DNA of 50,821 nucleotides from a virus: IMG/VR virus record IMGVR_UViG_3300014911_000395; one strand, 5' to 3'. Position numbers and translations under genes: made by a program. Under the pieces are notes generated by a model. That model saw nothing but the letters and a program-made list of their open reading frames with translations. It was not told where the DNA came from and ran no database searches. Numbering within the stretch: position 1 is the stretch's first letter; each line of letters opens with the position of its first letter. This document shows positions 24,721 through 50,821 of the stretch, piece by piece.

Positions 24721-24721
24721 G

Positions 24722-24898: not shown

Positions 24899-24909
24899 CA
24901 CCTCCTTTT

Positions 24910-26840: not shown

Positions 26841-26887
26841 ATATTACACCCCTATTATTTTTCAACGCAAATCATACTTAACGTTTT

Positions 26888-29031: not shown

Positions 29032-29074
29032 GCTACCACCCCTACCGATACAATTATTGACGCCATTATGTCTG

Positions 29075-29242: not shown

Positions 29243-29260
29243 GTTACCACCTCCAAGGAA

Positions 29261-30396
29261 TCACTCCTCCCACCAGACGAAAGATGCGCTTATATCCTCT
29301 GACGACTGGCTTTTATTCGTTATCTTAAGGTGTAACAGGTGTCCTTCGAGTATCTTAAATGTAGCACATGCAACGTTTCCACCAGTAGCAAAATTACCAC
29401 TCCCTCCAGCTATGACTCTTTGTGTTATTAAATCTCCAGCAGCGTACGTTCCTCCATATTCTACATGCATTGCTGATGTCTGTGTAGAACCAATCACTCT
29501 ATTTGTTGGCGTAATCTCTGTTCCAGCAGAAGTGATTGTAGAGTCCTTGTAAGCATCGAGATGACACTGTCCAGTGACATCCGTTATAATCCAAATTCCC
29601 CATATCGTGTTATAATCCAAATTCCCCATATCGTCTTTCCACTTCCAGATGGGTTTTGCAGTATGATTTCAATAGACTCATCACTTGATACTCCTTCGAA
29701 TCTATGTGCGGCTTCGTAAACTTTCTCCTCATCAAGTTTTGACTGAATTAACGTTGTGTTTAAGATTTCGAGTAGATTTCCGTGAAACGTTAGCTTATCC
29801 GTTTGAGCCTTGATTGCCGCAAGTGTAGCTTCAGTAGCACGTGTCGATAAGTTTACGTCAAGTTTTCCAAGTATGTCACTCAAGTCCGAGTCTAAATCAG
29901 ATAGAGTTTTATCATTTGTGCCTCTTAAGTTATCTACTATCTCAGATAGTGTTAAATCCATGTTTGGTGGATTGTCTGGCTTTGTCAAGAATTTATCGTT
30001 TCCAATACTATTTAACGCATTTGATAAGGCATACAGCCTGCCTAACATCGTAGCAAGCCTGTAAGTGCCTATTATTACGTATTTGGACGATGTATCTGGA
30101 ATCGTGTCCCAATCTGGGTATATCTGTAATGTTGTAGGGGTATTGCCCATTATATATCTGATTTGTCCTGCCCCAGTACCCTCGACAATCATAACCAAGC
30201 AGTCTGCAAATTGTGGAGGTAATGTTATTCCTCCAATCGTTATCGATGTCCACCAGTTTTTCGTATTGTCTTCAAGTGTACTGCTTGTTGCATTCGTAAC
30301 TGTACCAGAATCGAGGTACGACAGGTGAGCAAGTCCTTTCTCTTCAAGTGACTCTAATATGCCGTTCTTTATCTCCTCATAGTTTATTCCCGACAT
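29261..30396 (-). pseudogene. Virion fibre/adhesin-like gene split by a 26-bp tandem duplication
   Basis: ORFs 29584..30396 and 29261..29629 join in frame (KTIWGIWIITDVTGQ) when one copy of GTTATAATCCAAATTCCCCATATCGT (29583-29608 / 29609-29634) is removed, giving 369 aa. Confidence 0.85.
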
Positions 30397-30411
30397 GAAC
30401 TACCACCCCGC

Positions 30412-30846
30412 TTATAACCACTCCCTATACAGTATTTCGAATGGTGTGTTATCTACATCCGCTTTGACATGTATCGTTTTAAATCCAACTTCCCTTGGAA
30501 TTCTATCTATTAACACTTGACCATTTGGATATACTGTAAAAAACGTGTTTCCACCATCGAAGCTTATGTACACTTTCTCAGTCGACGGATTTTGAAATAG
30601 AAACCATCCTACAGGATTCGTAGCAAATTCATGTGGTGCTGACGCTTGATTAGCCACATCATTGTAGTGGTCTGGAAGTGCAAGCTCAATGATTTCTCTA
30701 TTCTGTACTTCTCCTGTCCAAGGCGTCCATTCTGGTTGCACGTAGTAGTACATCCTTATTTCTCCAGTTCTAATCGCTGCCACGTCTTCGTTCATATTTA
30801 CAATCAATCTTTGCGGACTGCCTTTATTTCCCATACTACCACCCAT
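30412..30846 (-). CDS. Beta-rich small structural protein (possible jelly roll)
   Basis: Alternating beta-strand pattern (GWFLFQN...VYISFDG...TIHVKA...FEILY); in structural operon. Confidence 0.55.
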   Translation of the reverse strand: MGGSMGNKGSPQRLIVNMNEDVAAIRTGEIRMYYYVQPEWTPWTGEVQNREIIELALPDHYNDVANQASAPHEFATNPVGWFLFQNPSTEKVYISFDGGNTFFTVYPNGQVLIDRIPREVGFKTIHVKADVDNTPFEILYREWL

Positions 30847-30878
30847 TTAAATTAATCCAACCTAATAAATAACTCTTT

Positions 30879-33800: not shown

Positions 33801-34247
33801 ATTCTCGATTTTGAAATATCCATTTTCATCTGTTGTGGTAAAGTACTCTGGCAAGTGTATTTTTTCGGGCATTTTGATTACATGAACAGCCGCATTTGGG
33901 ATTGAATATAAACCAGTATTGTACACGAACCCCTCTACACTCCCTCCAAGTGTTGGGATGATTTTCACCGATACGAAATCAAACAGATAGATTCTGTTCG
34001 CAAGCTCTGTGAATAGAATATGTGGCGGGAAGTTTACTGCTGGGTCGTTTAGTTGGATTGTTTCTTCTTGGATTAGTCGGTATTTTACATTTGAGAAAAA
34101 TGAAAAATCAATTATGTCTGCAATAAATTCTCCCGCTGTCTGGTAGACTCCATAATGTACGTCGACTAAATCTGGTGTTTGATATGGTTCTGCTGTCTGA
34201 TAGACTCCATAATGTACGTCGACTAAATCTATACAATATTCCGTCAT
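30879..34247 (-). CDS. Large adhesin/spike-like protein: carboxypeptidase-regulatory-like domains, Gly/Ser linker, beta-propeller
   Basis: Three TTD.NGYF/Y-type domains; ~60-aa G/S linker; ~7 repeats of V..D..Y.Y..G...L.KF.KSDLS; 19-aa N-terminal duplication. Confidence 0.75.
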   Translation of the reverse strand: MTEYCIDLVDVHYGVYQTAEPYQTPDLVDVHYGVYQTAGEFIADIIDFSFFSNVKYRLIQEETIQLNDPAVNFPPHILFTELANRIYLFDFVSVKIIPTLGGSVEGFVYNTGLYSIPNAAVHVIKMPEKIHLPEYFTTTDENGYFKIENLPYGDYVIVIFKPFHTIGFAYVTLNPATPDQYFDCYMYLLPEIFCTDRVYDQYGNMFKLYVFDDRIDEEDGMRHTKVLFAFGDLYNSAYIEDKAPYDGTITVRGEDVQVNILSAPVLGVRCFFDSGELLTTVGNNQIKFKGNIRKLDFDGVLFEIVSNPYYPFYIDIDINKLPVLRGGGGGGGGSSGGYGSASSGTSGYGSYAASGRGGSGGGWGGSGGGGSWGGGGGTGAGIGAGGVIHPPDFIVERKPNQIVLVDVINLDEAPVFLNFVDYIYIREGSQDGSESPLEFKPYIQVIGRAIDIYGNPIPYAFVYAYVEDYPYPIDKAVTDSNGIYTLNYIPSHKKILIVIHGEGKGTISGWIQTGGKNIVFKEALDILRNESFWSLGIYFDYDATYEFPALLQGYGRIYGHVWELGTGRPVANAVIEVEGTDLRVVTDSDGYYSVWVKTKGEFNVKCVKEGYKRARGRAIISSDYQLDFYLEKSVSRAYTGKTRKFSLGKHKRLKIPYLKILPQIPIEDSVNLGEENVVINYIGKIPLEDSISLSEQTVQVTVITPVGKLRVANQGTVSEGYYHAVHVDGDYMYACGRVVHPSLATNVGEFAKFDLSDLSRVFNACYGGTNTRFHDVAGDNDYLYIVGQTSAEGLGYEEAILYKVSKQDGSVVARIRAGGTNTDMFTGVVCDDNYVYVVGYSIDGSTYSRDLTILKFDKNLNVVAQKKCEGIRPLGRISRIAQDTDYIYVACYNSWDYRGAVMKISKSDLSRVAMIQIRPVIGGTDYPAELLGIDVDANYVYVSGHAWTGSSDYMLVAKLNKSDLSLNTAKIYSMPSSWGTAHVLKVDDNYVYVTHGYGGYSGGISKFDKSDLSFVAGKYLYDPNNKIDGWCGLDFYGDYLVLVGGKEVFSIMLLDKDLQSGTIASDPSGYELRDFSQSLVSSSVLTYGTGFTYSDLSLTVAASTLSTCTSLYGWSDLYRFTT

Positions 34248-36643
34248 AATAACGAGGATTGATACTTAAATCGTATTTTACCATCCACCTCATACTTGCC
34301 TATAAATTGCTGTAATCCTTTTGTTTTGAACACTATTTTAGCGTCACCAGAATATGAGACCGAGCCAGCTACACTTTCCGTATTCGTTGTTAGGCAGTCT
34401 ATGGACGTTATATCTTCTGTAACTTCTTGTGGAGTAATGATTTGTGGTACTCCGAAGTTGGCGGGGTCGGCGAGCTTGAGAACTCTTATCCAATCGAAAA
34501 CAAACTCTGTAGCCGTGTGATTATGAATGAACAGCCCACAGTGCTTACCCGTAGGTTCGGCTGAGAAAGTTTGCTGATTAACTTGAGTTCCATCAACATA
34601 TGCCGTTGCTTGTTTATTGCTTGATGTGTATATGATTTTGTAGATATGATAATCGTTATCCATAGAGATGCCTGACGAAACGATAAGTTTATCACTCCCT
34701 TCGTCACCGGGCATGCTGGTATGTCGTTCAAACTCACATCTATCCTCACTTTTTCTGTAATAAAAAGCCAAATCCTCGCTACCACTCGTTAGGTAATCGC
34801 TTTTCCACACAACTCCTGCGTCGTCAGATCCACTCGGAGATGTCGGAAATCTCCCTCTATACTCAATTATCCAGTCTGTTATATCAATTTCTTTTGAATT
34901 GACGATTTTAACAAAACTTGATGATGAAGTAATAGTAACCGTCCCGTCACCGTTGCACTGAGCATTAATGTCTCCGCAATCCTGCCACCCGTTCACACCA
35001 TCTAAATCGCCAGCTGGGTAGTTAAAGTCGTCAAAGAACTCGAAAACCTGTTCTCCGTTCTCGTAACCACTCTTCGTCGCACTCGGATTCCCGTAAGCAA
35101 TGTTCAGCTCTGTTATAGTTGGAGTTAGTTTGAACCATATCGTTGCACTCTTATTTGCGTAGTCAAACTCCTCAACCCAGAAATACATTTGATTGCCATT
35201 CTGGTCGAATAGACGTATATCTCGTCCATCTATCCATACATTCTGCCAGAAGTCGTCTGCCACCGCTGCCTGTGCTTTTGCAGTTGTACCTTCGCTATTG
35301 TAAATCGTTAAATTAGTATCATCTATCACAATCTTGTACTGGCAGTCTTCCGTTGGTTGTGTTGTTACTGGAATTTTAATGTACCTGCTCCAGCTTCCAC
35401 CGCCTGAGTTGTCGAGGTTGGTCAGTCCAGTAATCGATACTCTGAAAATCAAATCCGCTTGCTCGAAAACGTCCGACGGTAGCTGGTCGATTGCTGAGTC
35501 GTTGAACTTCTTTTGTACGTTGACTATCTGGGCTTTAATTTGGGGTGTGGTTGTTTGTATTTTGATTTTTGATGGTGATACTTTATATACTGCAAAATTA
35601 TCTATACAAATCTGCTTTGACGTCTCCGTAGAACCTGATGAGCCATTACTCCCGATACCGATGAATAACTGGCTAAAAGTAATTGAACCAGACTTAAAGT
35701 ATGTGTCATTAATATATATCGTATAATTTAAACTATTAATACCAGTTATATCCACTATAATCACTACTTTAGTGTAATCACTATAATTACCTCTTGATAT
35801 TTCGCTTTCACCTATCCTAAACCAACGAGAATCTACAGACGTACCACTACCATAGGATTCAGAAGTATAGAAATCAATTATAATTCTATCGCCTGTAAAG
35901 TACTCAATCTCTCGTTTAATTTCTACCGTATATTCCCCATCACCAAATACATAACTATGTATCCGCTTCCTTGAATTAAATCCCTCATCTACAATAGATA
36001 TATTATTACCATCCCACCCACTTAAATCCTCATCCTCAAAATCAGTTGCATAAACAAGCTCATAAATATTATCAAGTTCAACTTCACTTTCATACTCCTC
36101 ACCAACCATCAACCTGAAATTAGCTTGCAAACTTGATACTTCAGTAGGATAACTTATAAAATACAAGTTCTGCAAAATCCCGTCCGCACCAGACGGATTT
36201 AAACTATCATCAATATCTACCTGAATTGTACCATAATCCCGATAACCGTAATCAAAAACCTTAATCTTCAAACCCAAACCAGCTATTTTATTTACCCAAC
36301 CATTGGTAACCGCCACATTAATTTTGTACGTGCCTTCACCATCGTAAGGGTAGAAGAAAATCCAGTTATCCGACTCATCTATCGTTTTTTGAGCGTAAAC
36401 GTAGCCATCCGAATTACCAACAATTTTTACGGTAGCTGTGAACGTTTGGGCGTCACTGCTAATCTTAATACCGTACATCATGAAGCACTTTGGAATCCGC
36501 CTTAGATTTGATATAAAACCTATTGTCGCTTCAGAAGAGTTAGAATAATTGTCAAAGCTAATTTCAAGTGTTTCGTGTTCTTTCTTAAGCTCTATGAAAT
36601 CCTCTGGAAATGGCTGTACCCATCCGAGTTCGAAGTCAGCCAT
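34244..36643 (-). CDS. DUF2341 / lectin-like beta-sandwich virion protein
   Basis: GRDIRLFDQNG...YFWVE...ATIWFK...IAYGNP...VFEFFDDF followed by a ConA-like region. Confidence 0.8.
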   Translation of the reverse strand: MADFELGWVQPFPEDFIELKKEHETLEISFDNYSNSSEATIGFISNLRRIPKCFMMYGIKISSDAQTFTATVKIVGNSDGYVYAQKTIDESDNWIFFYPYDGEGTYKINVAVTNGWVNKIAGLGLKIKVFDYGYRDYGTIQVDIDDSLNPSGADGILQNLYFISYPTEVSSLQANFRLMVGEEYESEVELDNIYELVYATDFEDEDLSGWDGNNISIVDEGFNSRKRIHSYVFGDGEYTVEIKREIEYFTGDRIIIDFYTSESYGSGTSVDSRWFRIGESEISRGNYSDYTKVVIIVDITGINSLNYTIYINDTYFKSGSITFSQLFIGIGSNGSSGSTETSKQICIDNFAVYKVSPSKIKIQTTTPQIKAQIVNVQKKFNDSAIDQLPSDVFEQADLIFRVSITGLTNLDNSGGGSWSRYIKIPVTTQPTEDCQYKIVIDDTNLTIYNSEGTTAKAQAAVADDFWQNVWIDGRDIRLFDQNGNQMYFWVEEFDYANKSATIWFKLTPTITELNIAYGNPSATKSGYENGEQVFEFFDDFNYPAGDLDGVNGWQDCGDINAQCNGDGTVTITSSSSFVKIVNSKEIDITDWIIEYRGRFPTSPSGSDDAGVVWKSDYLTSGSEDLAFYYRKSEDRCEFERHTSMPGDEGSDKLIVSSGISMDNDYHIYKIIYTSSNKQATAYVDGTQVNQQTFSAEPTGKHCGLFIHNHTATEFVFDWIRVLKLADPANFGVPQIITPQEVTEDITSIDCLTTNTESVAGSVSYSGDAKIVFKTKGLQQFIGKYEVDGKIRFKYQSSLL

Positions 36644-36650
36644 AGTACCA

Positions 36651-37121
36651 CTAAGCTACGAACACCACCCATACGACCTCTACACTCTCTCCTGCCGACA
36701 CTGGCTTATCGTTGTATATCTGCCTTGCGAGCATTACTGGAGAATTCGCATACTGGTCGTTGAAAAGTCCAGCCTCCCTCAAAATTGTCGCAGAAGCGAA
36801 CGTGAACGTGTACGTCCATCTTGCCTTATTATCAGCCTCGTATTCAACCGTAGCCTGCCCCTCTGCAATGAAGTCCTCAAGAGCCGTATCATCAGGTGTA
36901 GGAGATGTTCCACCTCCTCCAACCTGCAACCACTGGAATGGTTTCGTACTGACGCCGTTTATGAGTCTGGCTACTTCTGCCTTTCCTACATTTACAATCA
37001 AATTCCTAACCGTCTCCGTATCCTTAACCTTTCCCTCTTTATCTTTAACCGTAATCGTCAACTCTCCAATCAACTTTAAACCTTCTCTCACATTTAACAC
37101 CTCCCTAAATGAAATAACCAA
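36651..37121 (-). CDS. Fibre-attachment protein resembling phage tail-fibre N-terminal domains
   Basis: LIVNVGKA...VGGGGTSPTPDDTALE...ILREAGLFND...MLAR; true start probably a GTG ~30 nt downstream. Confidence 0.65.
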   Translation of the reverse strand: MVISFREVLNVREGLKLIGELTITVKDKEGKVKDTETVRNLIVNVGKAEVARLINGVSTKPFQWLQVGGGGTSPTPDDTALEDFIAEGQATVEYEADNKARWTYTFTFASATILREAGLFNDQYANSPVMLARQIYNDKPVSAGESVEVVWVVFVA

Positions 37122-37590
37122 CTATTACCGCTTCATACGGAATTGGGTCTGAAGGGTCGCTACCCGCATTCGGGTAGGGTTTCGTATTATTGTTATCGAT
37201 ATATAACCTAATATTATTTAAAACTCTAATCGGTCTCGGAAAAATAAAAGGCTCAAGTATCGTTCCAACCTGAGCCTCGCCAGAAATAGCGTTAAAAGTT
37301 ACGTTATCGACTTCCCATCTGTAATAGCTGTTATCGTGCTGGTCTGTTCCTACTCCACACCACAGAAAAATCCTGTTTTTGTTGCTCGGCTCTTTCCAGT
37401 CAAGTAGCTTGTAATTCTTTGCACCCGCTGGAACTGGATTACTAATCGTTGAGGCAACCCTTTCGTAAACAAAGTCACCAACGCCTATACCTGCTAACCC
37501 TTCCTCATTACCTCCGAGAGTAAATAAAATAGCCCTGAGCAGGTTTCTTATCTCTAAGAGTACTTCTCCAGCGGTTAATTCTTCAGGCAT
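37105..37590 (-). CDS. Candidate single jelly-roll minor capsid protein
   Basis: YYRWEVDN...GTILEPFIFPRPIRV..NIRLYIDN...YEAVIVGYF beta pattern. Confidence 0.5.
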   Translation of the reverse strand: MPEELTAGEVLLEIRNLLRAILFTLGGNEEGLAGIGVGDFVYERVASTISNPVPAGAKNYKLLDWKEPSNKNRIFLWCGVGTDQHDNSYYRWEVDNVTFNAISGEAQVGTILEPFIFPRPIRVLNNIRLYIDNNNTKPYPNAGSDPSDPIPYEAVIVGYFI

Positions 37591-37601
37591 TTTTTATCCT
37601 C

Positions 37602-37706
37602 CTATGCAACCCTAATTTCCTTGTAAAGCTTGTACATAAATGCGGCTAACACGATTATTGCTATCATTTCGACAAGCTCTATGACTGTCAGTGTGGAGTC
37701 CCTCAT
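37602..37706 (-). CDS. Small single-TM protein (not in ORF track)
   Basis: MRDSTLTVIELVEMIAIIVLAAFMYKLYKEIRVA. Confidence 0.45.
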   Translation of the reverse strand: MRDSTLTVIELVEMIAIIVLAAFMYKLYKEIRVA

Positions 37707-37708
37707 GG

Positions 37709-38128
37709 TCAGTCCTTAACCTGAATTATCGGATACCCCAACACCGCCCACGCAATACCTTCCACATCATTTGCTGGGTCGTTGTTTGTCAGTTTGAGGT
37801 ACAATGGCTGTCTCGCTGGCAGAATCGGATAATCTGTATCCTTCTTCGTCGGTATGTATTTCTCGTTGTTCCTCGTACCCCTGAGGGAGTACGGTAGGTT
37901 GCTGATTATTCTTTCCTCAACGTTCAATGCTGTAAACAGGCTGAAGTTAATTAACAACTTGTGTGGATTTGTGATAGAATTAGCGTGAATGATTATACCA
38001 TCAATCGCATAGGAGTACTTATCACCCTCATAAGGGACTGTTTTTGTGGAGTCTTCATTCCCAGCGGCAAGCGTATCTATTGTTTTAACGAGAATATACC
38101 TCAGAGTCCCAAGTTTAATCACTGCCAT
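37709..38128 (-). CDS. Candidate single jelly-roll (penton-like) protein
   Basis: Follows the putative capsid gene; YAIDGIIIH...LINFSL...PARQPLYLKLTN...IAWAVLGY beta pattern. Confidence 0.5.
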   Translation of the reverse strand: MAVIKLGTLRYILVKTIDTLAAGNEDSTKTVPYEGDKYSYAIDGIIIHANSITNPHKLLINFSLFTALNVEERIISNLPYSLRGTRNNEKYIPTKKDTDYPILPARQPLYLKLTNNDPANDVEGIAWAVLGYPIIQVKD

Positions 38129-38159
38129 GTGATTTCACCTCGTAAAAAAATAAAGGAAA

Positions 38160-39563
38160 TTAGATTGTTATCCCCGCAGCCTGCACTTCGCTCAAAGTCC
38201 TCTCAACTGCCGAAGCGACCTCTGGTGGTGTTGACCTGTAGAACTGGCTCAATGTGTACAGCGTAAGTGTACCAGTCTTGGTTGGGTCGACTCCACTCTT
38301 GTTCACGAACATGAACGTAATCTTGTGCGGGTCTTCGAGTACCCTGTACTTCTCGTTCAAAGCTCTCATGGTGAAGATGTCCTTGCCTCCGCCGATTACG
38401 AATGCATAGTACTTGAACACAAATGGGTCGTTGTCATCTCCAGCAGTAGCAAAGACGAGTCCAGTAGCGTTGTCAACAGCGACAATACCAGCGACTGGAG
38501 CTTCAACATCAACCTCAGCGAGAGGCTGATACTTGAGCTGAGTTACTGGTGTGTACAGTTTGGTATCTCCATCATTCGTGTCTGTATAGTCCTTAGTAAT
38601 CTTGTCAACCGTAACAGTTCCGCCAGTCGTATCGTTATCAAGCACCGTAACGATTTCGTAGTTAGTTCCATCGCTTATCAAAGCCTTAGTTCCCTGCGGG
38701 AACTTGGCGGCTTCTGAAGCGGTAGCAAGGGTTATGTCAACATTGCTACCCGCCGCTGGCACACCGCCAGCTCCAACATCGTACGCCTTTGGCTGAGCGG
38801 CTTTAATCAGTATGCTCTCCTGAACCCATCTGCTCTTACCATCCGAAGGTGGCAAGAACATGTGGTCAAGTCTTGGCTTAACCTTCAAGTCCTCAACGCC
38901 ATCATACCAGACTCTGAACTCGACATCCTCAACAGGTATCTCGTCATGTGTCCACAACACTTCAATCGGGTTGTTCAGGACGTACTTGGTGTTCTTCTCA
39001 GGAACGATTGTATAGTGCGGATTTGTTGCGTCCCACTCTTCGAAGGTCGGGTTAGCAACGTCATCCGTTCTCAAGATGAACTTCTTGTTGTCTTGGAAGG
39101 TCGTAGGAACTTGCACGTTCTCGTAGTACAAGGGATGTAGCTTCTTGTATGGAACTTCAACCATCCTCGCCCTCAAGTATCTATTGACTGGGTCGTCGCC
39201 TCTCAAAATCCCCTTGAATAGCGTACCCTTCAGGTACACTTTCTTGTTCGAGGCGAGTCCAGAGATGTAGATGTCCCTGTCGAGTGGAATTGGCAACTCA
39301 AAACCAGTCGTGAACCACTTACCATCCCTAACCTGCGAGAACTGCATTCTATTCAAGTTGTAAGCACCCTTGTAGTACGGAGCAATCAGCTTGTTTATTC
39401 TTGTATAGATTATGTCCTCAACACCAAAGCTTATCGTATCTGGGCTGTCCGTCCCTATTTCTCTAACCAAGGCACAGTTGTTCTCACTATCCTCCAACCT
39501 CGTAAAGTTGTTTACGAGGTCGCTTCCTTTTATAACCAACTCCCAATTATCTATTATCTCCAT
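38160..39563 (-). CDS. Probable major capsid protein (double jelly roll with insertion, inferred)
   Basis: Early in the structural operon, AAAAGGT RBS, strongly biased codon usage (AAG/AAC/TAC/TTC) suggesting high expression, mostly beta pattern in two blocks; no HK97 features. Fold not verified. Confidence 0.5.
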   Translation of the reverse strand: MEIIDNWELVIKGSDLVNNFTRLEDSENNCALVREIGTDSPDTISFGVEDIIYTRINKLIAPYYKGAYNLNRMQFSQVRDGKWFTTGFELPIPLDRDIYISGLASNKKVYLKGTLFKGILRGDDPVNRYLRARMVEVPYKKLHPLYYENVQVPTTFQDNKKFILRTDDVANPTFEEWDATNPHYTIVPEKNTKYVLNNPIEVLWTHDEIPVEDVEFRVWYDGVEDLKVKPRLDHMFLPPSDGKSRWVQESILIKAAQPKAYDVGAGGVPAAGSNVDITLATASEAAKFPQGTKALISDGTNYEIVTVLDNDTTGGTVTVDKITKDYTDTNDGDTKLYTPVTQLKYQPLAEVDVEAPVAGIVAVDNATGLVFATAGDDNDPFVFKYYAFVIGGGKDIFTMRALNEKYRVLEDPHKITFMFVNKSGVDPTKTGTLTLYTLSQFYRSTPPEVASAVERTLSEVQAAGITI

Positions 39564-39613
39564 ACCTTTTCACCTCCTCCTATACACCACCCATCCTCCC
39601 GTAGGAGGAGAGG

Positions 39614-39730
39614 TTAGAACTCTCCCGTCTCAACTCCAAACGCCATCTCTTGCGTCTCAGGAAGTCTCCTCGTGGCTGTCTCTTCAGGTGGTGTTGCTGG
39701 TGCTGGTGTAGCTCTTTTCCTTGCTGACAT
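39614..39730 (-). CDS. 38-aa Pro/Thr-rich peptide (not in ORF track)
   Basis: MSARKRATPAPATPPEETATRRLPETQEMAFGVETGEF. Confidence 0.4.
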   Translation of the reverse strand: MSARKRATPAPATPPEETATRRLPETQEMAFGVETGEF

Positions 39731-39761
39731 TCTTCTATATACTGGCATCAGCACCACCCCT

Positions 39762-40088
39762 TCAAGCGGTCGTCAATTGTACCCTGACAATGTCTAAGAT
39801 TTGCACAAGCTCCACCACGAAAATTCCTGCAACCAAATACTGCACAAACTCCATTCCAGCTTTTCCTCTGCTGTACAACCAAAGACCAATGCCAATAGCC
39901 GACATGACGCCCGTAACTGCCAACGTGGAGTACACTTCATAGTTCTCTGGATACCTGTCTTTAAAGTAACCATCTGCAATTCCTTCGCCAACCATATGTG
40001 CCACTGCACCAACTACTGTACCAAACATTGTGTTGGCAAGCTCTGGTGTCGTTAACTGGTCTACATATCCAAATATAGTTTCAGGCAT
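39762..40088 (-). CDS. Multi-pass membrane protein at the head of the structural operon
   Basis: Three hydrophobic helices; GGAGGGGTGG RBS; TATA-like TTAAATA upstream. Confidence 0.75.
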   Translation of the reverse strand: MPETIFGYVDQLTTPELANTMFGTVVGAVAHMVGEGIADGYFKDRYPENYEVYSTLAVTGVMSAIGIGLWLYSRGKAGMEFVQYLVAGIFVVELVQILDIVRVQLTTA

Positions 40089-40231
40089 ATCTCATCCACC
40101 CCTCCTACTTTTTTCGACAACGAACACAACAATAGAATTATGAGAGTATCTAATATTTAAGGTTTTTTATGTTTTTTTGGTAAAACAAACCATTCTACAC
40201 CGAAAAGTTTTTCTATGCGGGAAACATAATT

Positions 40232-40477
40232 ATGGGTATGAGTATCGGGAAGGGATTGTTTAGGGTGGACGACCAAGTCAGGTTTGGAAAGTTGTTTGAC
40301 AGGCTCGCCGAACACTGCTATACACTGATGTACGTGCCGAGAAAAGACTTGATAGTGGCTTCACTACACGCAGATAAACTCATTGATGTTAAAAAGATAT
40401 TATCAGAAGAGAACAAAGAGATTATTGGCATTGTAGTGAATAGAAAGATGGTTTTTCTGAAAATTAGGTGGTCTTGA
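40232..40477 (+). CDS. Hypothetical protein
   Basis: 81-aa ORF divergent from the structural operon. Confidence 0.45.
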   Translation: MGMSIGKGLFRVDDQVRFGKLFDRLAEHCYTLMYVPRKDLIVASLHADKLIDVKKILSEENKEIIGIVVNRKMVFLKIRWS

Positions 40478-40629
40478 TGAGGATGAGTTGTGTCTCCACT
40501 GGACTGATGTCAAACTCTGAACTGCCAGAGTTCACCATACCACCAACAAAAAAGATGGAAAAAATATTTGATAATGGAATTTTCGCTATTTTTCTTTTTT
40601 GAGAAGAAAAAATTGTAGAGTTTTTTCTT

Positions 40630-40818
40630 TCAGCGGAAGATTTGTTTGATTATCCAATCGACTTCGTCTTCCGACAAAGTTCTATCAAGCGTCTTTTGAT
40701 TCTTTAGCCATGCCCTTGCGTACTTCTCGCACGCCTTACGCAGTATTCTTGCGAGCTTTTCGAGGTATTCGTCAACTGGTTTGTATTCCACTGGCTCGAA
40801 CTTAACCATGTACGTCAC
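40630..40818 (-). CDS. Hypothetical protein
   Basis: Overlaps the MCM stop. Confidence 0.5.
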   Translation of the reverse strand: MTYMVKFEPVEYKPVDEYLEKLARILRKACEKYARAWLKNQKTLDRTLSEDEVDWIIKQIFR

Positions 40819-42830
40819 ACATCAACAAGCCTGTAATGATTGTATTTTGGACAGTACACTACACCTATTTGCTTCATTTTATCGAGTACTTCTTCAACGT
40901 CAGCTTTGTCTAATCCCTTCTTTTCTGCATGTAAAACGATGTCAACGATGTTTACTCCTCTAACCTCATCCAACTCTCTCAAAATATCCACGACTACTTT
41001 TATTTTATCCCTTTTAGTTTTTGGGGTATCTGAGTACACAACATCAATATCCACTCCATCTGATGTTAGGTCAAGTCCAAGGCTCTTCAAGCTTTCAGTG
41101 AAAATCTCAATAGCTAAATCTACGTCACACTCCTCTACCCTATTGCTCAAACGCATTTTGGCGGCGGCAGTAGAAAGCCTGTACAACCCCTCAAGTTGTC
41201 TAACTGATATAGCAACACTACCTTCCATGGACTTTTCCCTAATTTCCATATAGAATTCAGATATTTTACTTCTTGCTTCATCAGATATAAATGGTTCAAC
41301 GTATTTTCGTGCGTACGAGATGTACTTTTTCAGTAATTCTATATCTATTTCAGGTGGTTTACCGCCAAATTGAATTACCTCATACATGTGTTCTGCAATT
41401 TTTCTATCCTCTTCTTTATCAGGTATGTCGAATACTGCAAAGATTAAATCAAATCTCGATAGCAGTGATGGTTCGATATTTATTTGGCTTGTTACAGGTT
41501 CATATCTGTCAAATCTACTGTACGCTGGATTTGCCGCCGCTAAAAGAGAACACCTCGTTCGTAGATATGTATGGATGTTTGCCTTATCTATCGTTATAAT
41601 CTGTGACTCAAGAGCTTCATGCAACATCTCACGCTCGTCCTTGCTCATTTTCTCAAGCTCATCAACTATTGCCAAACCCCCATCAGCAAGAGGTAGTACG
41701 CCAGCCTCCAGAACCCATTTGCCTGTAAATTCATCTTTTACAACAGCCGCTGTCAATCCTGCCTTACTAACCCCCTTACCTGAAGAATACACCGCCCTCG
41801 GTACGAGGTTCTTGACCCATTTAATTAACTTCGTTTTCGCAGTCGATGGGTCACCGACAATTAAAACGTGAATATCCCCCCTACACTCAGAGCCATCAGA
41901 TGAAGTACGTCTAACTCCACCGAACAACTGCAACGCTATTGCGAGCTTGGTGTAATAGTGTCCTCTGATAGATGGTGCAATTGAATTTACGATTTTACTA
42001 ACGAGGTTCTTGTCTTTCGATAATTCTTCAATCTTGCATTTATCTTCCTCGCTGATTTTTACTTCGTCATATCCTTTCTCAAGTACCTCTATTGAGTTTG
42101 CTTCAATATAATAGTCCATAATAGGTCTATCGCCCTTATGCAGTAGTCTCACTATTCCATTAACGACCACCCTCTCGCCTGCAAAGACTTTTCCAGCAAT
42201 ATCGTTTGTGAGGATAACCAATACCGTTCTTGGTTCTTCACCAACTGATAAGTTCTCTGGCAATTCCTGTATCTGAATAATCTGGTATGGGATTGTTTTA
42301 CTTTCCCCATCCAATAGCTCAAATCTCCTACCATCGTTACACGCCTTGCATTTGTACGGTTTCGTCAATTTAGCTGTTGGAGATATATCTACATGCATTA
42401 CGTTCTTAGAGCCACATTTCTTACATTTATACACCGCTTCAACAACGTATGGCATGATAAGTGAAGCCCTTGTAACTATCCCTTCAATAGCATAGAACTT
42501 GTTTACACATGTATGCTCGATTTTATTTGGAGATATACGTCTTGCCAAAGGTAGATTTACGAACCTAACGAAATACCCCTTTAGATTTACGCCATCGATT
42601 GGGTTGTAGATGTCCCATAGCCCTTCGTGTGCGTGTTTAATTACATCATCTGGGAATTCAACCAACTCCTCATATATTCTCATCTCCCTGTATGTCACAA
42701 GCTCGTTTTTGACGTCAACGTAGAACGACTTTTTTCCATGCCCTGTTTCGTACATAAACTGTCGCAACTTCTTTTCCACCCTCGTCTCGAAAAAATCTTC
42801 CCATTCTGCTGGGCTACTCAACAAATCCAT
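40815..42830 (-). CDS. mcm: MCM replicative helicase
   Basis: C4 zinc finger, QELPE, Walker A GDPSTAKT, SKAGLTAAV, LEAGVLPLADGG, Walker B IVDELEKM, AAANP, LLSRFDL, VRQLE, C-terminal wHTH. Confidence 0.97.
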   Translation of the reverse strand: MDLLSSPAEWEDFFETRVEKKLRQFMYETGHGKKSFYVDVKNELVTYREMRIYEELVEFPDDVIKHAHEGLWDIYNPIDGVNLKGYFVRFVNLPLARRISPNKIEHTCVNKFYAIEGIVTRASLIMPYVVEAVYKCKKCGSKNVMHVDISPTAKLTKPYKCKACNDGRRFELLDGESKTIPYQIIQIQELPENLSVGEEPRTVLVILTNDIAGKVFAGERVVVNGIVRLLHKGDRPIMDYYIEANSIEVLEKGYDEVKISEEDKCKIEELSKDKNLVSKIVNSIAPSIRGHYYTKLAIALQLFGGVRRTSSDGSECRGDIHVLIVGDPSTAKTKLIKWVKNLVPRAVYSSGKGVSKAGLTAAVVKDEFTGKWVLEAGVLPLADGGLAIVDELEKMSKDEREMLHEALESQIITIDKANIHTYLRTRCSLLAAANPAYSRFDRYEPVTSQINIEPSLLSRFDLIFAVFDIPDKEEDRKIAEHMYEVIQFGGKPPEIDIELLKKYISYARKYVEPFISDEARSKISEFYMEIREKSMEGSVAISVRQLEGLYRLSTAAAKMRLSNRVEECDVDLAIEIFTESLKSLGLDLTSDGVDIDVVYSDTPKTKRDKIKVVVDILRELDEVRGVNIVDIVLHAEKKGLDKADVEEVLDKMKQIGVVYCPKYNHYRLVDV

Positions 42831-42841
42831 CCAACCACCTC

Positions 42842-43984
42842 CTACAATTTCCATAATTTCTCAATGGTTTTTACAATAAAATCAGGATTTATACTCTCAT
42901 TCAATACCAAATTATGTTTTAAACCCCTGCCTCTACCACCACTATGCTTAACAACTTTAATATAACCCGCCAATTCCAAAGAAAACCTACGGTCAGCCCA
43001 CCGTCTTGAAGATAATGATGTTTTAAAATACTTATACAGCAATTTATTAGCATACTCATACGCTTTGTGTATTTGGATAGGACTTAATTTAGCAATTACA
43101 TACAATAAACACTGCTCAGTATAGGATAAGGACTCTATTGAATCAACTTGGTACTTGACTTCAAGTTCATCAATAGCCTTATCAATTAAATCATTAGAAA
43201 TTTCTGTTAGACCTAAAGTATCAGCTAAATCACCAGATATTCCTAAAACATCAAGAGAATACCTTACATCTGCCCCAGCGATGCCATACGCTTTTGTCGC
43301 TAAGTAATCAATACACTCATCAGATATAACACCATCATAAAATACTTCCTGCGACCTCTGTTTAATAATATCACTAATTTGGTTGACAGAATACGGCTTA
43401 AATACAATTTTAGAGGGATTCCACGAACTGTACACTCTATCACTCAGAACAGAACTAACCATAATGTCGTCCATAATTGTCATAACGTTTGTAATACCGA
43501 TTAAAGACAGGTTCTCACGCCTTGTAAGGTCATACATTATTGTTTCACAGTATCTACTATTAAATAGCTTATCTATTTCATCTAAGATAATCAGTGCATT
43601 TTTATTTCCAATCGCATTAAATACACGATTTTTTGCATCAAAAACAGAAAGTCCTTTTTTAGGCAAAGTCATATTTAGTTTTAATGAGATATTCCTTAGA
43701 GTCTCTTTAATTGAGTCGTCAGCAATAGCATAGATAATCATAGATTCATCGGGATTTATATCTGCTTTTACATCCTCAATAGCCTTCATAACCGTTGCAG
43801 TTTTACCAACACCAGTCCTTCCAAGAATTAAGGTGTTTCTAACGAAACCAGAATCTATAAATGAATACAACATATTAACCAACATTTTTAATTCTTTCTC
43901 TCTGTATGGCAAGTATTTTGGTATGTATCTTTGAGATAGTGCTTTTCGATTTTTGAATACCGTGTTCCGATACTCAGAACCCAT
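42842..43984 (-). CDS. cdc6: Orc1/Cdc6 initiator
   Basis: LPYREKE, Walker A GRTGVGKT, Walker B ILDEID, FKPYS..QI..II..R, GADVR, C-terminal wHTH. Confidence 0.93.
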   Translation of the reverse strand: MGSEYRNTVFKNRKALSQRYIPKYLPYREKELKMLVNMLYSFIDSGFVRNTLILGRTGVGKTATVMKAIEDVKADINPDESMIIYAIADDSIKETLRNISLKLNMTLPKKGLSVFDAKNRVFNAIGNKNALIILDEIDKLFNSRYCETIMYDLTRRENLSLIGITNVMTIMDDIMVSSVLSDRVYSSWNPSKIVFKPYSVNQISDIIKQRSQEVFYDGVISDECIDYLATKAYGIAGADVRYSLDVLGISGDLADTLGLTEISNDLIDKAIDELEVKYQVDSIESLSYTEQCLLYVIAKLSPIQIHKAYEYANKLLYKYFKTSLSSRRWADRRFSLELAGYIKVVKHSGGRGRGLKHNLVLNESINPDFIVKTIEKLWKL

Positions 43985-44069
43985 AAAACACCACCAGATA
44001 CAAATAGACGACAACTATTATTTAAACTTTTCCACAAATCCTATAAAATATAGAGGGAAATGAGTGTAT

Positions 44070-44734: not shown

Positions 44735-45901
44735 ATGATACCAACAATTTTTTTCTTCGGAGATGGTAAGAAGAAAGATGCCGATAAAGACAAAGAATTC
44801 GAGCAGATAGAGGTACAGTTCAAGGCAAGAGAAACCGACAAGTACATCCACTGCAACGATATTCACTTCGACCACTTCCCAACAGCCGAAGAGATAGCTG
44901 AAGAGTATGGAGGAGGAATCTGGCTCGTTACAGCAAAAAACCATAGAGGTAGAATCATAAAAAGGAAGAAATACGTTATCAGAGACCAAGATATACGCTA
45001 TCCAGTGAAAGTCTGGAGAGTAAAAGTCAAAATGCCAGAGGGCAGACGCTTCTACAAGGTTGACGGACTGGAATACGACTCAATGCCAACACCTGACGAA
45101 ATCAAGGAAGATATCGGTGGTGGAGGTATAATCAGGCTCGAAGGATACGACGCTGAAAACAGGCGTATCACATACAAACAATTCACGATTGATGAAGAGC
45201 CACCTAAGTGGCTTCTTGAAGCTGAAGATACTATTGAAAAGAAGATGAAAGAAGCTTTGAATGCGAGGATAAAACAGGAGCAAGAAAAACTAATTCAGAA
45301 ACTAACTGGTGAGGGTGAAGAGGTTAGACCGACTACAAAAAAACTATCAGAAACGGTTAATGAAATCATAAATGCGTTCGAGGAACTGCAACTTGAGAGG
45401 TTTGAACAAATTGTAGATAAATTAACATCCCCAAGAAAAAGTGAAGAAGAGCAACAGCCAAAGAAAACCTTAACGGACGTACTATTTGTAGAGCCACAAA
45501 AAATCAAACTTGAGGCGATGAATACGGTGATAAGAGAACTCGCCAAGAGCAACCCAATGGAGGCTGCAAAGATGATAGAAAAAATGCCCGATGCTACTGG
45601 AGCTTTGATGAACTTGATAAACGCTGGTTCACAGGCTTTAATGGCATTCGCCAACGTGTTACAGGCACAATCAGCAGAGAAGATGGCTAAATTGAAACAA
45701 GATACTACGCCACAACAACAGCAACCAAAGCAACCTGAATCACAACAGGAACAAAAAGACGTTCTTGAAGCGGCTGAGGAAACAGCGGGTAAGGTTAGAG
45801 AACAAGAGAAATCGCAAGTAGGTATCGAGGTTACAGAGAATGAGAAGGGTTGGGAAGTCGAATTCAAAGACGAAAGTCTTGGTGGAATAGAGGTGGAATA
45901 G
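44735..45901 (+). CDS. Hypothetical protein: duplicated N-terminal beta domain plus helical, Q/E-rich C-terminus
   Basis: Two copies of F/Y-D...PT..EI.E..GGG..; first gene after the origin. Confidence 0.75.
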   Translation: MIPTIFFFGDGKKKDADKDKEFEQIEVQFKARETDKYIHCNDIHFDHFPTAEEIAEEYGGGIWLVTAKNHRGRIIKRKKYVIRDQDIRYPVKVWRVKVKMPEGRRFYKVDGLEYDSMPTPDEIKEDIGGGGIIRLEGYDAENRRITYKQFTIDEEPPKWLLEAEDTIEKKMKEALNARIKQEQEKLIQKLTGEGEEVRPTTKKLSETVNEIINAFEELQLERFEQIVDKLTSPRKSEEEQQPKKTLTDVLFVEPQKIKLEAMNTVIRELAKSNPMEAAKMIEKMPDATGALMNLINAGSQALMAFANVLQAQSAEKMAKLKQDTTPQQQQPKQPESQQEQKDVLEAAEETAGKVREQEKSQVGIEVTENEKGWEVEFKDESLGGIEVE

Positions 45902-45903
45902 AC

Positions 45904-46524
45904 ATGTTCGATAAAAACTTGTTGAAAGCCGCATTTGAAGAGATGAAGGCGAAGGGCATAGGCTCTTTTCTGAAAAATGCAATGCAGATGGAGAACATTA
46001 AATCGATGATAATGAGTCAGGTATTGCCAATTTGGGAGCAGTTTAAGACAAGATACGACGTGAAGGATGTCAGCTATGACCTCGTAGATAGTACGTTCAT
46101 AGCGGAGTTTCACGTTCCAGACGAGCAGAACAGAGAAGACATGGTCAAGAACATGCTAAACTTCATAGACTCACTGAGGTCACACTTTTTAATGAAACTG
46201 GCACTTAGCGAGTTTGAGATAAAACGAATGCGTTGTTATGAGGATAATGAATACGTTAAGATTGAGTTTGAGGGTAATGAAAAGTTTGTGGATTTGGTTG
46301 AAAGTTTAAGAGGAGGTGATGAGAGTGGAGGAGAACCAGAACAAGATGAAGAAGAGTTTGAAATCTCCCTTCCAGATACAGCCAGCAGAGATGGAGAAGT
46401 TGATGGACATGCCACTGAAGGAAGTGGTGAAGAAGGGTTACATGCCAATGAATCCAATAGATATAGCCCAAACGGGGGAGGAGATAGCGGAGTTGAGCCA
46501 GCAAGCGGGGATGATATACGGTAG
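45904..46524 (+). CDS. Hypothetical protein with acidic tail overlapping the next gene
   Basis: Start moved to ATG 45904 after GAGGTGG. Confidence 0.65.
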   Translation: MFDKNLLKAAFEEMKAKGIGSFLKNAMQMENIKSMIMSQVLPIWEQFKTRYDVKDVSYDLVDSTFIAEFHVPDEQNREDMVKNMLNFIDSLRSHFLMKLALSEFEIKRMRCYEDNEYVKIEFEGNEKFVDLVESLRGGDESGGEPEQDEEEFEISLPDTASRDGEVDGHATEGSGEEGLHANESNRYSPNGGGDSGVEPASGDDIR

Positions 46525-46807
46525 CAGTCTGCATTCAATTATTTCAGCAATCAGGAGAACGGACTTGCCAATACCTGTCAGAATGGTTAAGGGGGCTAAA
46601 GGCTTCATGGCATTGCTCGGTTTGTTCCTGACGGCAAAAGAGACGTTTGAGGCTTTTGACCAGATAGAATCATCAATTCTTGGTAGTGAAGAGCCACAAG
46701 GTAAAGACGTGAAGGACAACACTGACATCGACGCCCTGCTCGACAAACTTGAAGCTTTAACAAAAGAAAATGAGAGGTTGAAAAAACAGCTTGAAGGAAG
46801 ACAATAA
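46319..46807 (+). CDS. Helical hypothetical protein
   Basis: GGAGGTGA RBS at 46312; C-terminal coiled coil. Confidence 0.65.
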   Translation: MRVEENQNKMKKSLKSPFQIQPAEMEKLMDMPLKEVVKKGYMPMNPIDIAQTGEEIAELSQQAGMIYGSSLHSIISAIRRTDLPIPVRMVKGAKGFMALLGLFLTAKETFEAFDQIESSILGSEEPQGKDVKDNTDIDALLDKLEALTKENERLKKQLEGRQ

Positions 46808-46839: not shown

Positions 46840-48525
46840 ATGTTTATAGGCATTGACTTGGGGACTACATCAAGTGAAGCGGCTTTTGTTGACGATAAAA
46901 AGGAAATACAAATTATTCCCGCTTCTGAAGGCTCATTTGGCGGTAAAAACTTCCCGTCGGTTGTTGGATTCAAAGATAAAGAGATAATAGTCGGTTGGCA
47001 GGCAAAAAGACTTCCTATTGAGAAGTTCGCAGAATTCAAGCGAGCGATGGGTACGGATAAAAAATTCTACTCTGAAACTCTCGATAAGTGGTTCACTCCC
47101 CAAGAACTATCCGCATTTGTTCTTAGGAAAATCAAGGAGGACGCAGAAAAATATCTCAACGAAGAAATTACAGGAGCAGTAATAACAGTTCCAGCCTATT
47201 TCGATGATAACCAGCGTCAGGCTACCAAGGACGCCGCAAAAATTGCGGGTATTGATTGTAAGAGGATAATCAACGAACCGACAGCCGCCGCTATGGCTTA
47301 CGGCTTTAAAGGTGATGAGAACATCAAGGTTGCAGTACTCGACCTCGGTGGTGGTACGTTCGATGTGACAATCATGGAAATAGCGGACGGTGTATTTCAA
47401 GTACTATCGACGTCGGGAGATACGAAGCTTGGCGGTTGTGACATGGACGATTTGCTCTACAAGTACATTATTAACAACTATCTACCCGATAATGCTGATG
47501 TTGATGATTATGAGGTACTAATGATTAAAGAAATGGTAGAAAGGGCTAAGATGGAGTTAAGCAGTGTCACAACCACTACTATCTACGTTCCAAGGTTGTT
47601 CAACGTTACGATTACAAGGTCTGAGTTCGAGAAAGTAATCAAACCCGTGTTGGACAGATTAAAAGCCCCAATCTTTGACGCCCTAAAAGGTGCAAATCTA
47701 ACTCAGGAAGAGATAGACAGGGTAATCCTCGTTGGCGGAGCAACGAAAGTTCCAGCAGTTAGGAACTTGTTTGAAGACATCTTCGGCAAGGAGAAAATAG
47801 CTGGCGGAGTTGACCCGATGAGAGCTGTTGCTATGGGAGCGGCAATTCAGGCGGCAATTCTCGAAGGCAAGCTAAAATCTGACGTACTGCTCGTTGACGT
47901 TCTACCATTATCTCTCGGTGTAGAGATTAAAGATGGGTTGATGAGTAAAATCATAGAACGCAACACACCAATTCCGATTAAAGCCTCAAAGATATTCACA
48001 ACGGTTTATGATAACCAAACAGCGGTAAGGGTAAAGGTATTTCAAGGGGAGCGAGAATTTACGAAGGATAACGTATATCTCGGAGAACTTCTACTCGATG
48101 GTATTCTGCCAGCACCAGCGGGAGTTCCACGTATAGAAGTCACCTTCGAGGTCGATGAAAACGGAATAATAATAGTTACAGCGAAGGACTTGGGAACAGA
48201 GAAGGAACGAACACTCAAAATTGAAGCACCACATAGGCTATCTGATGATGAGCTTAAGAGAATTATCGAGGAGGCTGAAAAGCTCAGAGATGAAGATATG
48301 AAAGGTAGAGAGCTAATAGAGCTAAAGAATAAAGCTCACATGACGATAGATTTCATAGATGTTGCATTAAAGAAAGTCGATGGTCAGATAAAATCAGAGC
48401 TTGTTGAAGCTAAACTGAACCTTGAGAGGAGCGTTAGCAGTAATAATAATGATGAGATAAAACACTACCTCAACGTTGCTGAGGATTTATTGCGTAAAGC
48501 TGCTGAACAAATTTACGGTTCGTGA
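46840..48525 (+). CDS. dnaK: Hsp70 chaperone DnaK
   Basis: [43 protein letters not shown], linker [30 protein letters not shown]. Confidence 0.97.
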
Positions 48526-48586
48526 CTGCCAGCACATACCAGAATTAACCGAAAATTTTAAAAAGTGTAAAAATTAAATTCTGAGT

Positions 48587-48916
48587 ATGACGGAAATTGG
48601 AGGAGAAGCTGGAGACGTAGCAATATTCGATGTGGAAGTAACGACGGGCAGGAGAATAACAATACCGCACAAGGTATCGGAGAGACTTGGCATAACTAAG
48701 GGAACGATGGTGAGGTTTACGGTTGTTCCGCTCGATGAGGTAGATGATGAGGACATAGACAACATAAACCCGTTAAACAAAGGTATTTTCGAGGCAGAAG
48801 TGCCAGTCGATAAAAGAATAACTATCCCCTCAAAGATTGCGAAGAGACTTGGAATGAACGTGGCGGGTACGATGGTCAGGGTGAAACTTGAAATTCTGGA
48901 TTTTGGAGAAGCTTGA
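48587..48916 (+). CDS. Tandem AbrB/SpoVT swapped-hairpin transcription factor
   Basis: Two copies of RITIP..V/I..RLG...GTMVR. Confidence 0.85.
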
Positions 48917-49365
48917 TGGATAGACTCGAAGCGTTAAGAATTCTCGGATTACATCCAGACGCTACACAAGATGAGATTAAACAGGCATTCAGGAAGCTCG
49001 CCAAACAACATCACCCTGACGTTGGCGGTGACAAAGAACACTTCAAGAAAATCAATGAAGCTTACAACGTTCTCGTAAACAAAAAAGACTTCGACCTCAA
49101 TTTAGATGTCAACGTCAACATCGACATCGACATCAAAAACATCATGCTAAAAGCAGAGGAGGCAACCAAGAAAATTTTTAATTTATTTGGTTTTGAGACG
49201 GGAGAGTTTGAGATACAGTATAAATGTCCCGTTTGTGGTGAGGAATGGGTTGAGAAATCGTTTATTAAAGTTACAGATGTGGTAGAGGAGGTTTGTGGAA
49301 AATGCAGATTAAGGTTGGCTCAAAAGTTAGGTTCAAGCTTTTTGGAAAACTTTTCGAAGGAGTAG
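48916..49365 (+). CDS. Class C J-domain protein with C-terminal zinc ribbon
   Basis: ALRILGL...[20 protein letters not shown]...FKKINEAY; CPVC...CGKC; no G/F region. Confidence 0.9.
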
Positions 49366-50273: not shown

Positions 50274-50285
50274 GGGGTGGTTGGG

Positions 50286-50821
50286 TTGGCTAAAAATGTT
50301 ATCGGTTCGTTGTGTATGGATAAAACACTGTTAAGAAAGCTCGTAGAATTGCATTTACCAATCGCTGATACGGGTGGAATAAAAATACATGAGAATGGTA
50401 TAAACATTTCAACACGCACGGAAGGAAATTATGCGATTGTTACGATAAACGTTGCCGAGGAGGATTTGCAAAATCTCAAAATCGATACTGATGTGTTATT
50501 TGGAGTCAACTTCGTGGACATAAAAGAATTGATTAAAGGTTTTGGAGAACCAGTCTGCCTTGATGTGTTCGCAGACAGGGTGAAAGTCACTGGCGGCAAG
50601 TACAAAACAACGCTCAGCATAATACCTCCATCGAACATCGATAACAGAGTTAAGGCAAGAAAATTCAATCTGGATAACGCTGTAACGGTAAACATTTCAG
50701 AGCTTGTGAAATTCCTTGAGGTTGCCAAGAAGTTCGGTGAAGATTTGCACGTTGAGCTTACAGAGGATACGTTACTTTTCTATGTCGACGATAAGGGCAG
50801 ACATGAGTTTGAATATACGAG
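50286..50821 (+). CDS. pcna: PCNA sliding clamp, 5' part (continues at 124-340)
   Basis: Frame from TTG 50286 (after GGGGTGG RBS) or ATG 50316 reads MDKTLLRKLVELHLPIADTGGIKIHENGINIS...VNFVDIKELIK...ISELVKFLEVAKKFGE and joins the 8..340 frame. Confidence 0.85.
   Translation, partial: MAKNVIGSLCMDKTLLRKLVELHLPIADTGGIKIHENGINISTRTEGNYAIVTINVAEEDLQNLKIDTDVLFGVNFVDIKELIKGFGEPVCLDVFADRVKVTGGKYKTTLSIIPPSNIDNRVKARKFNLDNAVTVNISELVKFLEVAKKFGEDLHVELTEDTLLFYVDDKGRHEFEYT
50699..50821. repeat. Terminal direct repeat, copy 2
   Basis: Identical to 1-123; implies a 50,698-bp circle. Confidence 0.97.

Follow-up and report, generated by a model that had tools for sequence, protein, structure and literature searches.

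The Hsp70 and J-domain genes

The stretch of DNA analysed here is the IMG/VR virus record IMGVR_UViG_3300014911_000395, which we call the window when we mean its full 50,821 nt and whose positions provide all coordinates. On its plus strand the window encodes a compact Hsp70 and a J-domain protein with a C-terminal zinc ribbon (Table 1). A first-pass annotation, made from the letters alone, had read these two genes as a virus-encoded chaperone pair lying between an origin with Cdc6 and MCM on one side and PCNA on the other, and the neighbours in this window are as it described them.

The Hsp70 matches the Pfam family HSP70 (PF00012) over profile positions 2-597 of 599 with an E value of 8.8e-164. 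Residues were mapped by alignment to E. coli DnaK, whose numbering we use. We found that the catalytic residues D8, K70, E171, D194 and T199 are kept, both by the window protein and throughout the clade of short Hsp70s to which it belongs, and that this clade also keeps R167, the residue that contacts DnaJ. The hydrophobic interdomain linker of the VLLLDV type is likewise kept, and the beta part of the substrate-binding domain (SBD-beta) and the lid also align. The Hsp70 motifs are thus intact, as the first-pass annotation had stated, and its remark that the protein ends soon after the lid helices holds as well, with no C-terminal tail in the alignment.

On this conserved plan the clade carries a series of reductions. 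Lobe IB is 4 residues shorter than in cellular DnaK and the tip of lobe IIB lacks about 9-16 residues; in DnaK these two lobes form the GrpE-contact region. The substrate arch is altered (M404K and A429V/T, with A429V in the window), and the lid latch is lost, R467 being replaced by alanine in 19/19 clade members (PAPAGVP) while the position of its partner D540 is variable. Furthermore, the lid has lost 5-9 residues, and its last helix is where the protein stops. Some 150 alignment columns do not vary over the 19-member clade, which indicates purifying selection. The window Hsp70 fails the NCBIfam DnaK equivalog models TIGR02350/NF001413 (scores of 580.2 against a cut-off of 822.55 and 586.7 against 648), both of which are cleared by the ANME-1 DnaK P0025 (843.3 and 840.1), and it also misses the HscA cut-offs (TIGR01991, 490 against 708.55; NF003520, 478.4 against 620).

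The second member of the pair is matched by Pfam DnaJ (PF00226, E 5.8e-17) at residues 10-58 of the open reading frame (ORF) 48913-49365, whose more likely start is the ATG at 48916. The window protein has the HPD tripeptide, as do all its full-length homologues (P0187, P0188, P0190 and P0192), and its single CPVC...CGKC pair is conserved among homologues, so that the J domain with HPD and the zinc ribbon reported by the first-pass annotation are both found. A word-based search with this protein gave generic J domains only; its relatives surfaced through an exhaustive search, which recovered full-length proteins of 119-141 aa at 38-47% identity with the common pattern HPD ... KCPxCGxxWxExS ... 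EExCxxC. The model for DnaJ of classes A and B (TIGR02349) gives 54.7 bits against a cut-off of 377.2, with an alignment limited to the J domain, and the protein is devoid of a glycine/phenylalanine-rich (G/F) region, of CxxCxGxG finger repeats and of client-binding C-terminal domains. A CSL-type identity for the zinc ribbon, as in DPH4, was considered and set aside, with an atlas score of 0.77, under the usable level, and no Pfam support. One further protein, P0186 (679 aa), has six stretches that each match the viral J domain and looks like a multi-J-domain protein.

The gene upstream of the Hsp70 ends 32 nt before its ATG, which is preceded by a TATA-like AT tract and an AGGTGAT ribosome-binding site. 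Between the Hsp70 and J genes of the window lies an AbrB/MazE-like gene that was absent from the first-pass annotation; its product scores 32.7 bits against the NCBIfam AbrB domain (cut-off 28.3). Its stop overlaps the likely start of the J gene as TGATG, and the two genes are apparently translationally coupled through this overlap. The lack of a GrpE, also pointed out in the first-pass annotation, was confirmed: none of the 62 window ORFs scanned matches GrpE (PF01025), and the window has no grpE-dnaK-dnaJ operon arrangement.

Table 1. Features of the window, in order of position
Feature	Length	Position	Strand	Evidence or remark
TnpB (OrfB_IS605/Cas12f-like), first copy		361-1635
IS200-type Y1 transposase		1548-2021
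GHKL/HExxH protein		10816-12777
TnpB, second copy		14312-15571
Tyrosine integrase	501 aa	19906-21411	-	PHROG 1 E 9.4e-17; homologue in L094
TnpB, third copy		22595-23854
Double jelly-roll major capsid protein	467 aa	38160..39563	-	AF2 (AlphaFold2) model and VIA-align
MCM helicase		40815-42854	-	Pfam MCM E 6.2e-86
Cdc6/Orc1		42842-44014	-	Pfam Cdc6_lid E 9.3e-12
Genes 1 and 2 of the conserved three-gene block	388 aa; ~206 aa from ATG 45904	44735..46524	+	No family match
Conserved helical protein	~160 aa	46316..46807	+	Directly upstream of Hsp70; homologues in L202, L171, L197, L205
Compact viral Hsp70 (nucleotide-binding domain, linker, SBD-beta, shortened lid, no C-terminal tail)	561 aa	46840..48525	+	Pfam HSP70
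AbrB/MazE-like (swapped-hairpin) protein, two repeats	109 aa	48587..48916	+	Pfam MazE_antitoxin E 1.8e-5
Class-C J-domain protein (J domain with HPD, linker, C-terminal CxxC...CxxC zinc ribbon)	149 aa	48916..49365	+	Pfam DnaJ
Protein without family match	242 aa	49545-50273	+	Between J gene and PCNA
PCNA, N-terminal part		50277..50821, continuing at 2-340 over terminal repeat	+	PCNA_N E 4.6e-4

Viral nature of the contig, Hsp70 phylogeny and host

A 123-bp direct repeat is present at both termini of the window, making the contig a circle of 50,698 bp. The PCNA gene spans the circular junction and so closes the contig on itself; the ORF set containing 8-340 gives a PCNA_C match (E 2.8e-8). The cumulative GC skew has its minimum at about 44 kb, and the plus-strand unit that contains the chaperone genes begins at the putative origin beside Cdc6/MCM and finishes with PCNA.

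Next to the replication genes lies the gene of a capsid protein that only structure made recognisable. Neither Pfam nor PHROGs finds a capsid or terminase family in the window, and no sequence-level homology of the protein to known capsid proteins was found. We found that its AlphaFold2 model (predicted local distance difference test, pLDDT, 87.6) aligns in VIA-align with PRD1 P3 (Z 9.3, root-mean-square deviation 4.5, 238 residues aligned), the major capsid protein of STIV (Z 8.7, 231 aligned), PM2 P2 (Z 8.1, 217 aligned) and PBCV-1 (Z 7.6, 240 aligned). These Z values are moderate, and the matches cover residues 1-456 of the model, that is, both jelly rolls; a small beta-barrel is inserted at about residues 259-339. 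Foldseek alone gave capsid-like matches only at low TM (template-modelling score). Because the contig is circular and encodes this predicted double jelly-roll capsid protein, its identification as a virus is supported. No match to an FtsK/HerA-type (A32-like) packaging ATPase family was found, and a 337-aa ORF at 2817-3830 gives weak AAA_5 and MCM P-loop matches only.

The capsid family comprises 51 proteins (clusters), many of them on contigs of 42-55 kb, and is without a member in IMG/VR or in the phage collection. Judged from sequence, it apparently marks an uncatalogued archaeal virus family of vent and seep sediments. The capsid proteins of the ANME-1 viruses of the Coyopavirales are double jelly-rolls with an extra small beta-barrel and are unrecognisable by sequence (PMC9894754). 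Compared by description rather than by sequence, the capsid architecture of the window resembles that of Coyopavirales (Chaacviridae, Ixchelviridae), and the habitat is alike (PMC9894754). The genome plan differs, however: Chaacviruses are linear with a protein-primed PolB (PMC9894754), whereas the window is circular with MCM, Cdc6 and PCNA.

The contig could instead be a plasmid or another element, or the chaperone genes a mis-assembled host dnaK fragment. The binning of related capsid-bearing contigs into metagenome-assembled genomes (MAGs) labelled Methanophagales, Methanosarcinales, Archaeoglobales and Shapirobacteria (the last clearly wrong) would fit such an origin, as would the lack of a recognised terminase or packaging ATPase in the window. 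However, the same Hsp70 clade is found beside the same capsid family in independent JGI, ENA, Logan and NCBI assemblies, and because the pair recurs in this way we do not take it for a chimeric host fragment. In addition, the viral Hsp70 shares only about 52% of its residues with the closest cellular DnaK and scores under the DnaK equivalog cut-offs, the capsid fold is present and the contig closes through its PCNA gene. We consider a non-viral origin extremely improbable, and the claim of the first-pass annotation that the Hsp70 and J genes are encoded by a virus is upheld by the capsid fold, the circular contig and the recurrence of the pair in relatives.

The database proteins nearest to the window Hsp70 are 55-66% identical to it and fall into 18 clusters with lengths of 549-571 aa; contigs of 44-50 kb carry several of these. 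Next come full-length DnaKs (611-624 aa) of Methanophagales/ANME-1 at about 52% identity; IMG/VR is without a close relative (identity at most 46%). When placed among cellular DnaKs, 19 short Hsp70s (549-571 aa) are monophyletic (FastTree support 1.0; 99.9 in the Shimodaira-Hasegawa-like approximate likelihood ratio test, SH-aLRT, of a fast IQ-TREE search), and the stem leading to them is long (0.36-0.42 substitutions per site). This distinct viral clade groups with ANME-1 (Methanophagales) DnaK at an SH-aLRT of 100. Its exact placement varies, being nested inside ANME-1 in FastTree and sister to ANME-1 in IQ-TREE.

The phylogeny bears directly on the host. The runs in which the Hsp70-J stretch occurs are metagenomes of sediment and hydrothermal vents, and an order search showed that the Methanosarcinales-labelled MAGs share their GTDB order with Methanophagales. 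Related viral contigs are binned in two ANME-1-order MAGs, and each of these MAGs has a cellular dnaK with dnaJ downstream, plus GrpE. Given these genes and the Hsp70 phylogeny, the host is most likely an ANME-1-like archaeon with an Hsp70 system of its own. The first-pass annotation had suggested that the virus might supply Hsp70 to a host lacking it; with the ANME-1 affinity and the dnaK-dnaJ and GrpE genes of the two MAGs, we find this suggestion unsupported. The Hsp70 phylogeny provides independent evidence tying an uncatalogued virus family of about 42-55 kb to ANME-1 hosts. Both MAGs also encode a distant Hsp70 paralogue (G001:C136:3373-5909 and G002:C62:248-2965), 36-39% identical to the viral protein and adjoining a GrpE-like gene.

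Gene order in relatives and the function of the pair

The pair is not confined to the window. The J/zinc-ribbon protein recurs with a clade Hsp70 on at least five other contigs, and contigs of identical length (44,947, 16,373 and 3,011 nt) occur in both the J-protein and the Hsp70 clusters. In L202 and L211 the J gene begins 4 nt past the end of the Hsp70 gene. L202, which is a whole 7.35-kb Guaymas contig, carries on one strand a three-gene block, the Hsp70, the J gene, two small genes, the capsid protein and the next virion gene. Furthermore, the Hsp70 directly adjoins the capsid module in L197, L119 and L100, and its other flank in L197 consists of glycosyltransferase and methyltransferase genes followed by the inverted three-gene block.

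The same three-gene block precedes the Hsp70 in the window (44735-46807), and its homologues keep their order in L202 (9-1029), L197 (10567-12212, minus strand), L171 and L205. In L205 the block and the capsid operon are on one strand with other cargo in place of Hsp70-J, and the 41.9-kb relative L203 in MAG G003, whose capsid protein is 48% identical, has no Hsp70. Because the L205 slot holds other cargo and L203 is without an Hsp70, we regard the chaperone pair, on this comparison of sequences, as accessory cargo of a variable slot beside the morphogenetic module. The slot between block and capsid operon spans 2159-9464 in L205 and 1520-4228 in L202; the L205 cargo includes a homologue, at 40% identity, of the GHKL/HExxH protein of the window.

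We next considered what the pair might do. One proposal is that it remodels replication initiation, loading or releasing Cdc6/MCM at the viral origin as DnaK-DnaJ do for lambda P-DnaB or P1 RepA. The precedents in lambda and P1 speak for this, as does the plus-strand unit of the window, which runs from the putative origin by Cdc6/MCM to PCNA. However, this adjacency is not conserved. No MCM or Cdc6 lies near the Hsp70 in L202, L197, L119 or L100, nor at the equivalent position in L202 and L197, and the MCM-like gene of L094 is about 9 kb away; only in this window is the capsid operon separated from the chaperone block by MCM and Cdc6 (40815..44014, minus strand) and the putative origin. We therefore judge the replication role decidedly unlikely. 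The first-pass annotation had offered replisome loading or virion assembly as the task of the pair: the assembly half is the better supported, through the capsid linkage of the relatives, and the replisome half is unsupported, its adjacency being specific to the window.

Since relatives keep the pair at or beside the capsid operon, we favour a virion role over replisome loading. Our reading, to which we give about an even chance, is that of a dedicated virion-morphogenesis chaperone pair in a tailless icosahedral archaeal virus, its clients being virion proteins rather than the replisome; the most likely job would be capsid-protein folding or particle assembly. The J-Hsp70 interaction, the independence from GrpE and the morphogenetic role are each something that we infer.

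Several observations weigh against this reading. Synteny is weak evidence on clients. The complete 12.7-kb contig L197 has an Hsp70 and no J gene, so that the two genes need not occur together. The J gene of L094 (7533-7958, minus strand) lies 3.6 kb downstream of the Hsp70 on the same strand; its start runs into the end of the gene for a 471-aa integrase (7951-9366), to which it is coupled rather than to capsid genes. In the window itself some 7 kb separate the capsid gene from the pair; MCM, Cdc6 and the putative origin lie in this interval, and PCNA comes after the pair. Finally, a CRISPR-spacer-type DNA search of window positions 24001-44000 against 68 ANME-1-order genomes gave short imperfect matches and MCM-level similarity only, which did not confirm the host.

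A further explanation is that the pair serves general proteostasis or host takeover, without a specific client: it would add Hsp70 capacity, or its J protein would redirect the host DnaK in the manner of phage RB43 Rki, and so make a burst of viral protein synthesis manageable in a host that is hot and short of energy. This would agree with the pair being accessory cargo in a variable slot, with a J gene that does not always adjoin the Hsp70, and with likely hosts that own a DnaK on which the viral J protein could act. However, the altered arch, the lost latch and the trimmed lobes point to a specialist rather than a generalist Hsp70, and conservation of the J protein extends to its zinc-ribbon tail. 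We hold this explanation to be unlikely, at about one chance in four in our judgement.

The features of the two proteins suggest how a morphogenesis pair could work. A viral Hsp70 of ANME-1 (Methanophagales) DnaK affinity would have been streamlined and would have a class-C J protein as partner. The HPD J domain would dock on the retained R167/linker surface of the Hsp70 and stimulate ATP hydrolysis, and the C-terminal zinc ribbon of the J protein may direct it to a particular client or site. Without the latch, and with a shorter lid and a modified arch, the Hsp70 would exchange substrate faster and be narrower in specificity; together with the trimmed lobes IB and IIB, these changes suggest a fast-cycling specialist Hsp70. 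A viral GrpE could be dispensable, and the trimmed lobes would agree with either intrinsic nucleotide exchange, as in HscA, or the use of host GrpE. In its most specific form, which we advance tentatively and at less than an even chance, the proposal is that a minimal GrpE-independent Hsp70 and a zinc-ribbon J protein, derived from a host-lineage DnaK, have been re-tooled as a dedicated assembly chaperone for double jelly-roll capsids, the first Hsp70 machine of an archaeal virus. Functional parallels for a capsid-assembly chaperone are the adenovirus 100K protein and the GroEL dependence of PRD1.

Known systems and neighbouring genes

The closest cellular system is the DnaK-DnaJ-GrpE of ANME-1/Methanophagales, which the viral pair resembles in the overall plan of nucleotide-binding domain, linker, substrate-binding domain and lid, in the catalytic residues and in having an HPD J partner, at about 52% identity. 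In contrast to ANME-1 DnaK, the viral protein is 50-60 aa shorter, with trimmed lobes IB and IIB, no latch, a shorter lid and no tail, and the viral J protein is without the G/F region, the CxxCxGxG finger and the C-terminal client domains; no viral GrpE gene accompanies them. HscA/HscB is a specialised bacterial pair of an Hsp70 and a minimal J protein that works without GrpE, and we suggest it as a working analogy, a dedicated Hsp70 with a minimal J partner. The viral Hsp70 nevertheless scores below the HscA cut-off, no Fe-S cluster genes lie nearby, and its J partner has a zinc ribbon instead of the helical domain of HscB.

Other viruses encode Hsp70s, among them the closteroviruses, whose Hsp70h acts in virion assembly, and mimivirus-like giant viruses, which have Hsp70/DnaJ homologues; DnaK-like genes are also found in huge and Lak phages of the phage collection at 36-42% identity. 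All of these belong to a different realm and host domain and would be independent acquisitions, whereas here the carrier is an archaeal double jelly-roll virus of about 50 kb, the nearest relative is ANME-1 DnaK, and the partner is a novel J/zinc-ribbon protein. Phage RB43 Rki and the polyomavirus T antigens, viral proteins too, use a J domain to act on the Hsp70 of the host. The J protein of the window shares with them its viral origin, its small size, an intact HPD J domain and a C-terminal part unlike that of DnaJ, but here the Hsp70 comes from the virus as well, and a conserved CxxC...CxxC ribbon forms the C-terminal part. In full-text literature searches, which included a 2026 survey of archaeal viral genomes, no Hsp70 or Hsp70/J pair was described for an archaeal virus, and the ANME-1 virome paper with its supplements contains no Hsp70, DnaK, DnaJ or chaperone term (PMC9894754).

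The clade represents a naturally minimised Hsp70 with a partner of 120-150 aa, a compact system in which to ask what the Hsp70 cycle needs. It also provides a testable handle on the folding of double jelly-roll capsids in slow-growing, uncultured methane-oxidising archaea.

The protein of about 160 aa encoded directly upstream of the Hsp70 was considered as a substitute for GrpE, that is, as a nucleotide exchange factor, and rejected. Its AlphaFold2 model is all-helical and of low confidence (pLDDT 64), without the beta-domain of GrpE, the gene is present in L205 with no Hsp70 after it, and the atlas gave no usable match. A complex prediction of the Hsp70 with this protein scored 0.15 (mark 0.32). 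Within the three-gene block, genes 2 and 3 (45904-46524 and 46316-46807) overlap by about 209 nt in the window as against 8 nt in L202, and the window copy of gene 2 carries a low-complexity acidic C-terminal extension.

Among the remaining neighbours, genes similar to the AbrB/MazE-like gene are found upstream of the Hsp70 in L086. The same contig also encodes (5178-6065) a homologue, at 43% identity, of the 242-aa protein that in the window is located between J gene and PCNA, and this homologue has a weak zinc-ribbon match. Finally, mobile genes are spread over the first half of the window, namely the three TnpB genes, the Y1 transposase and the tyrosine integrase, the last of which suggests a virus capable of integrating.

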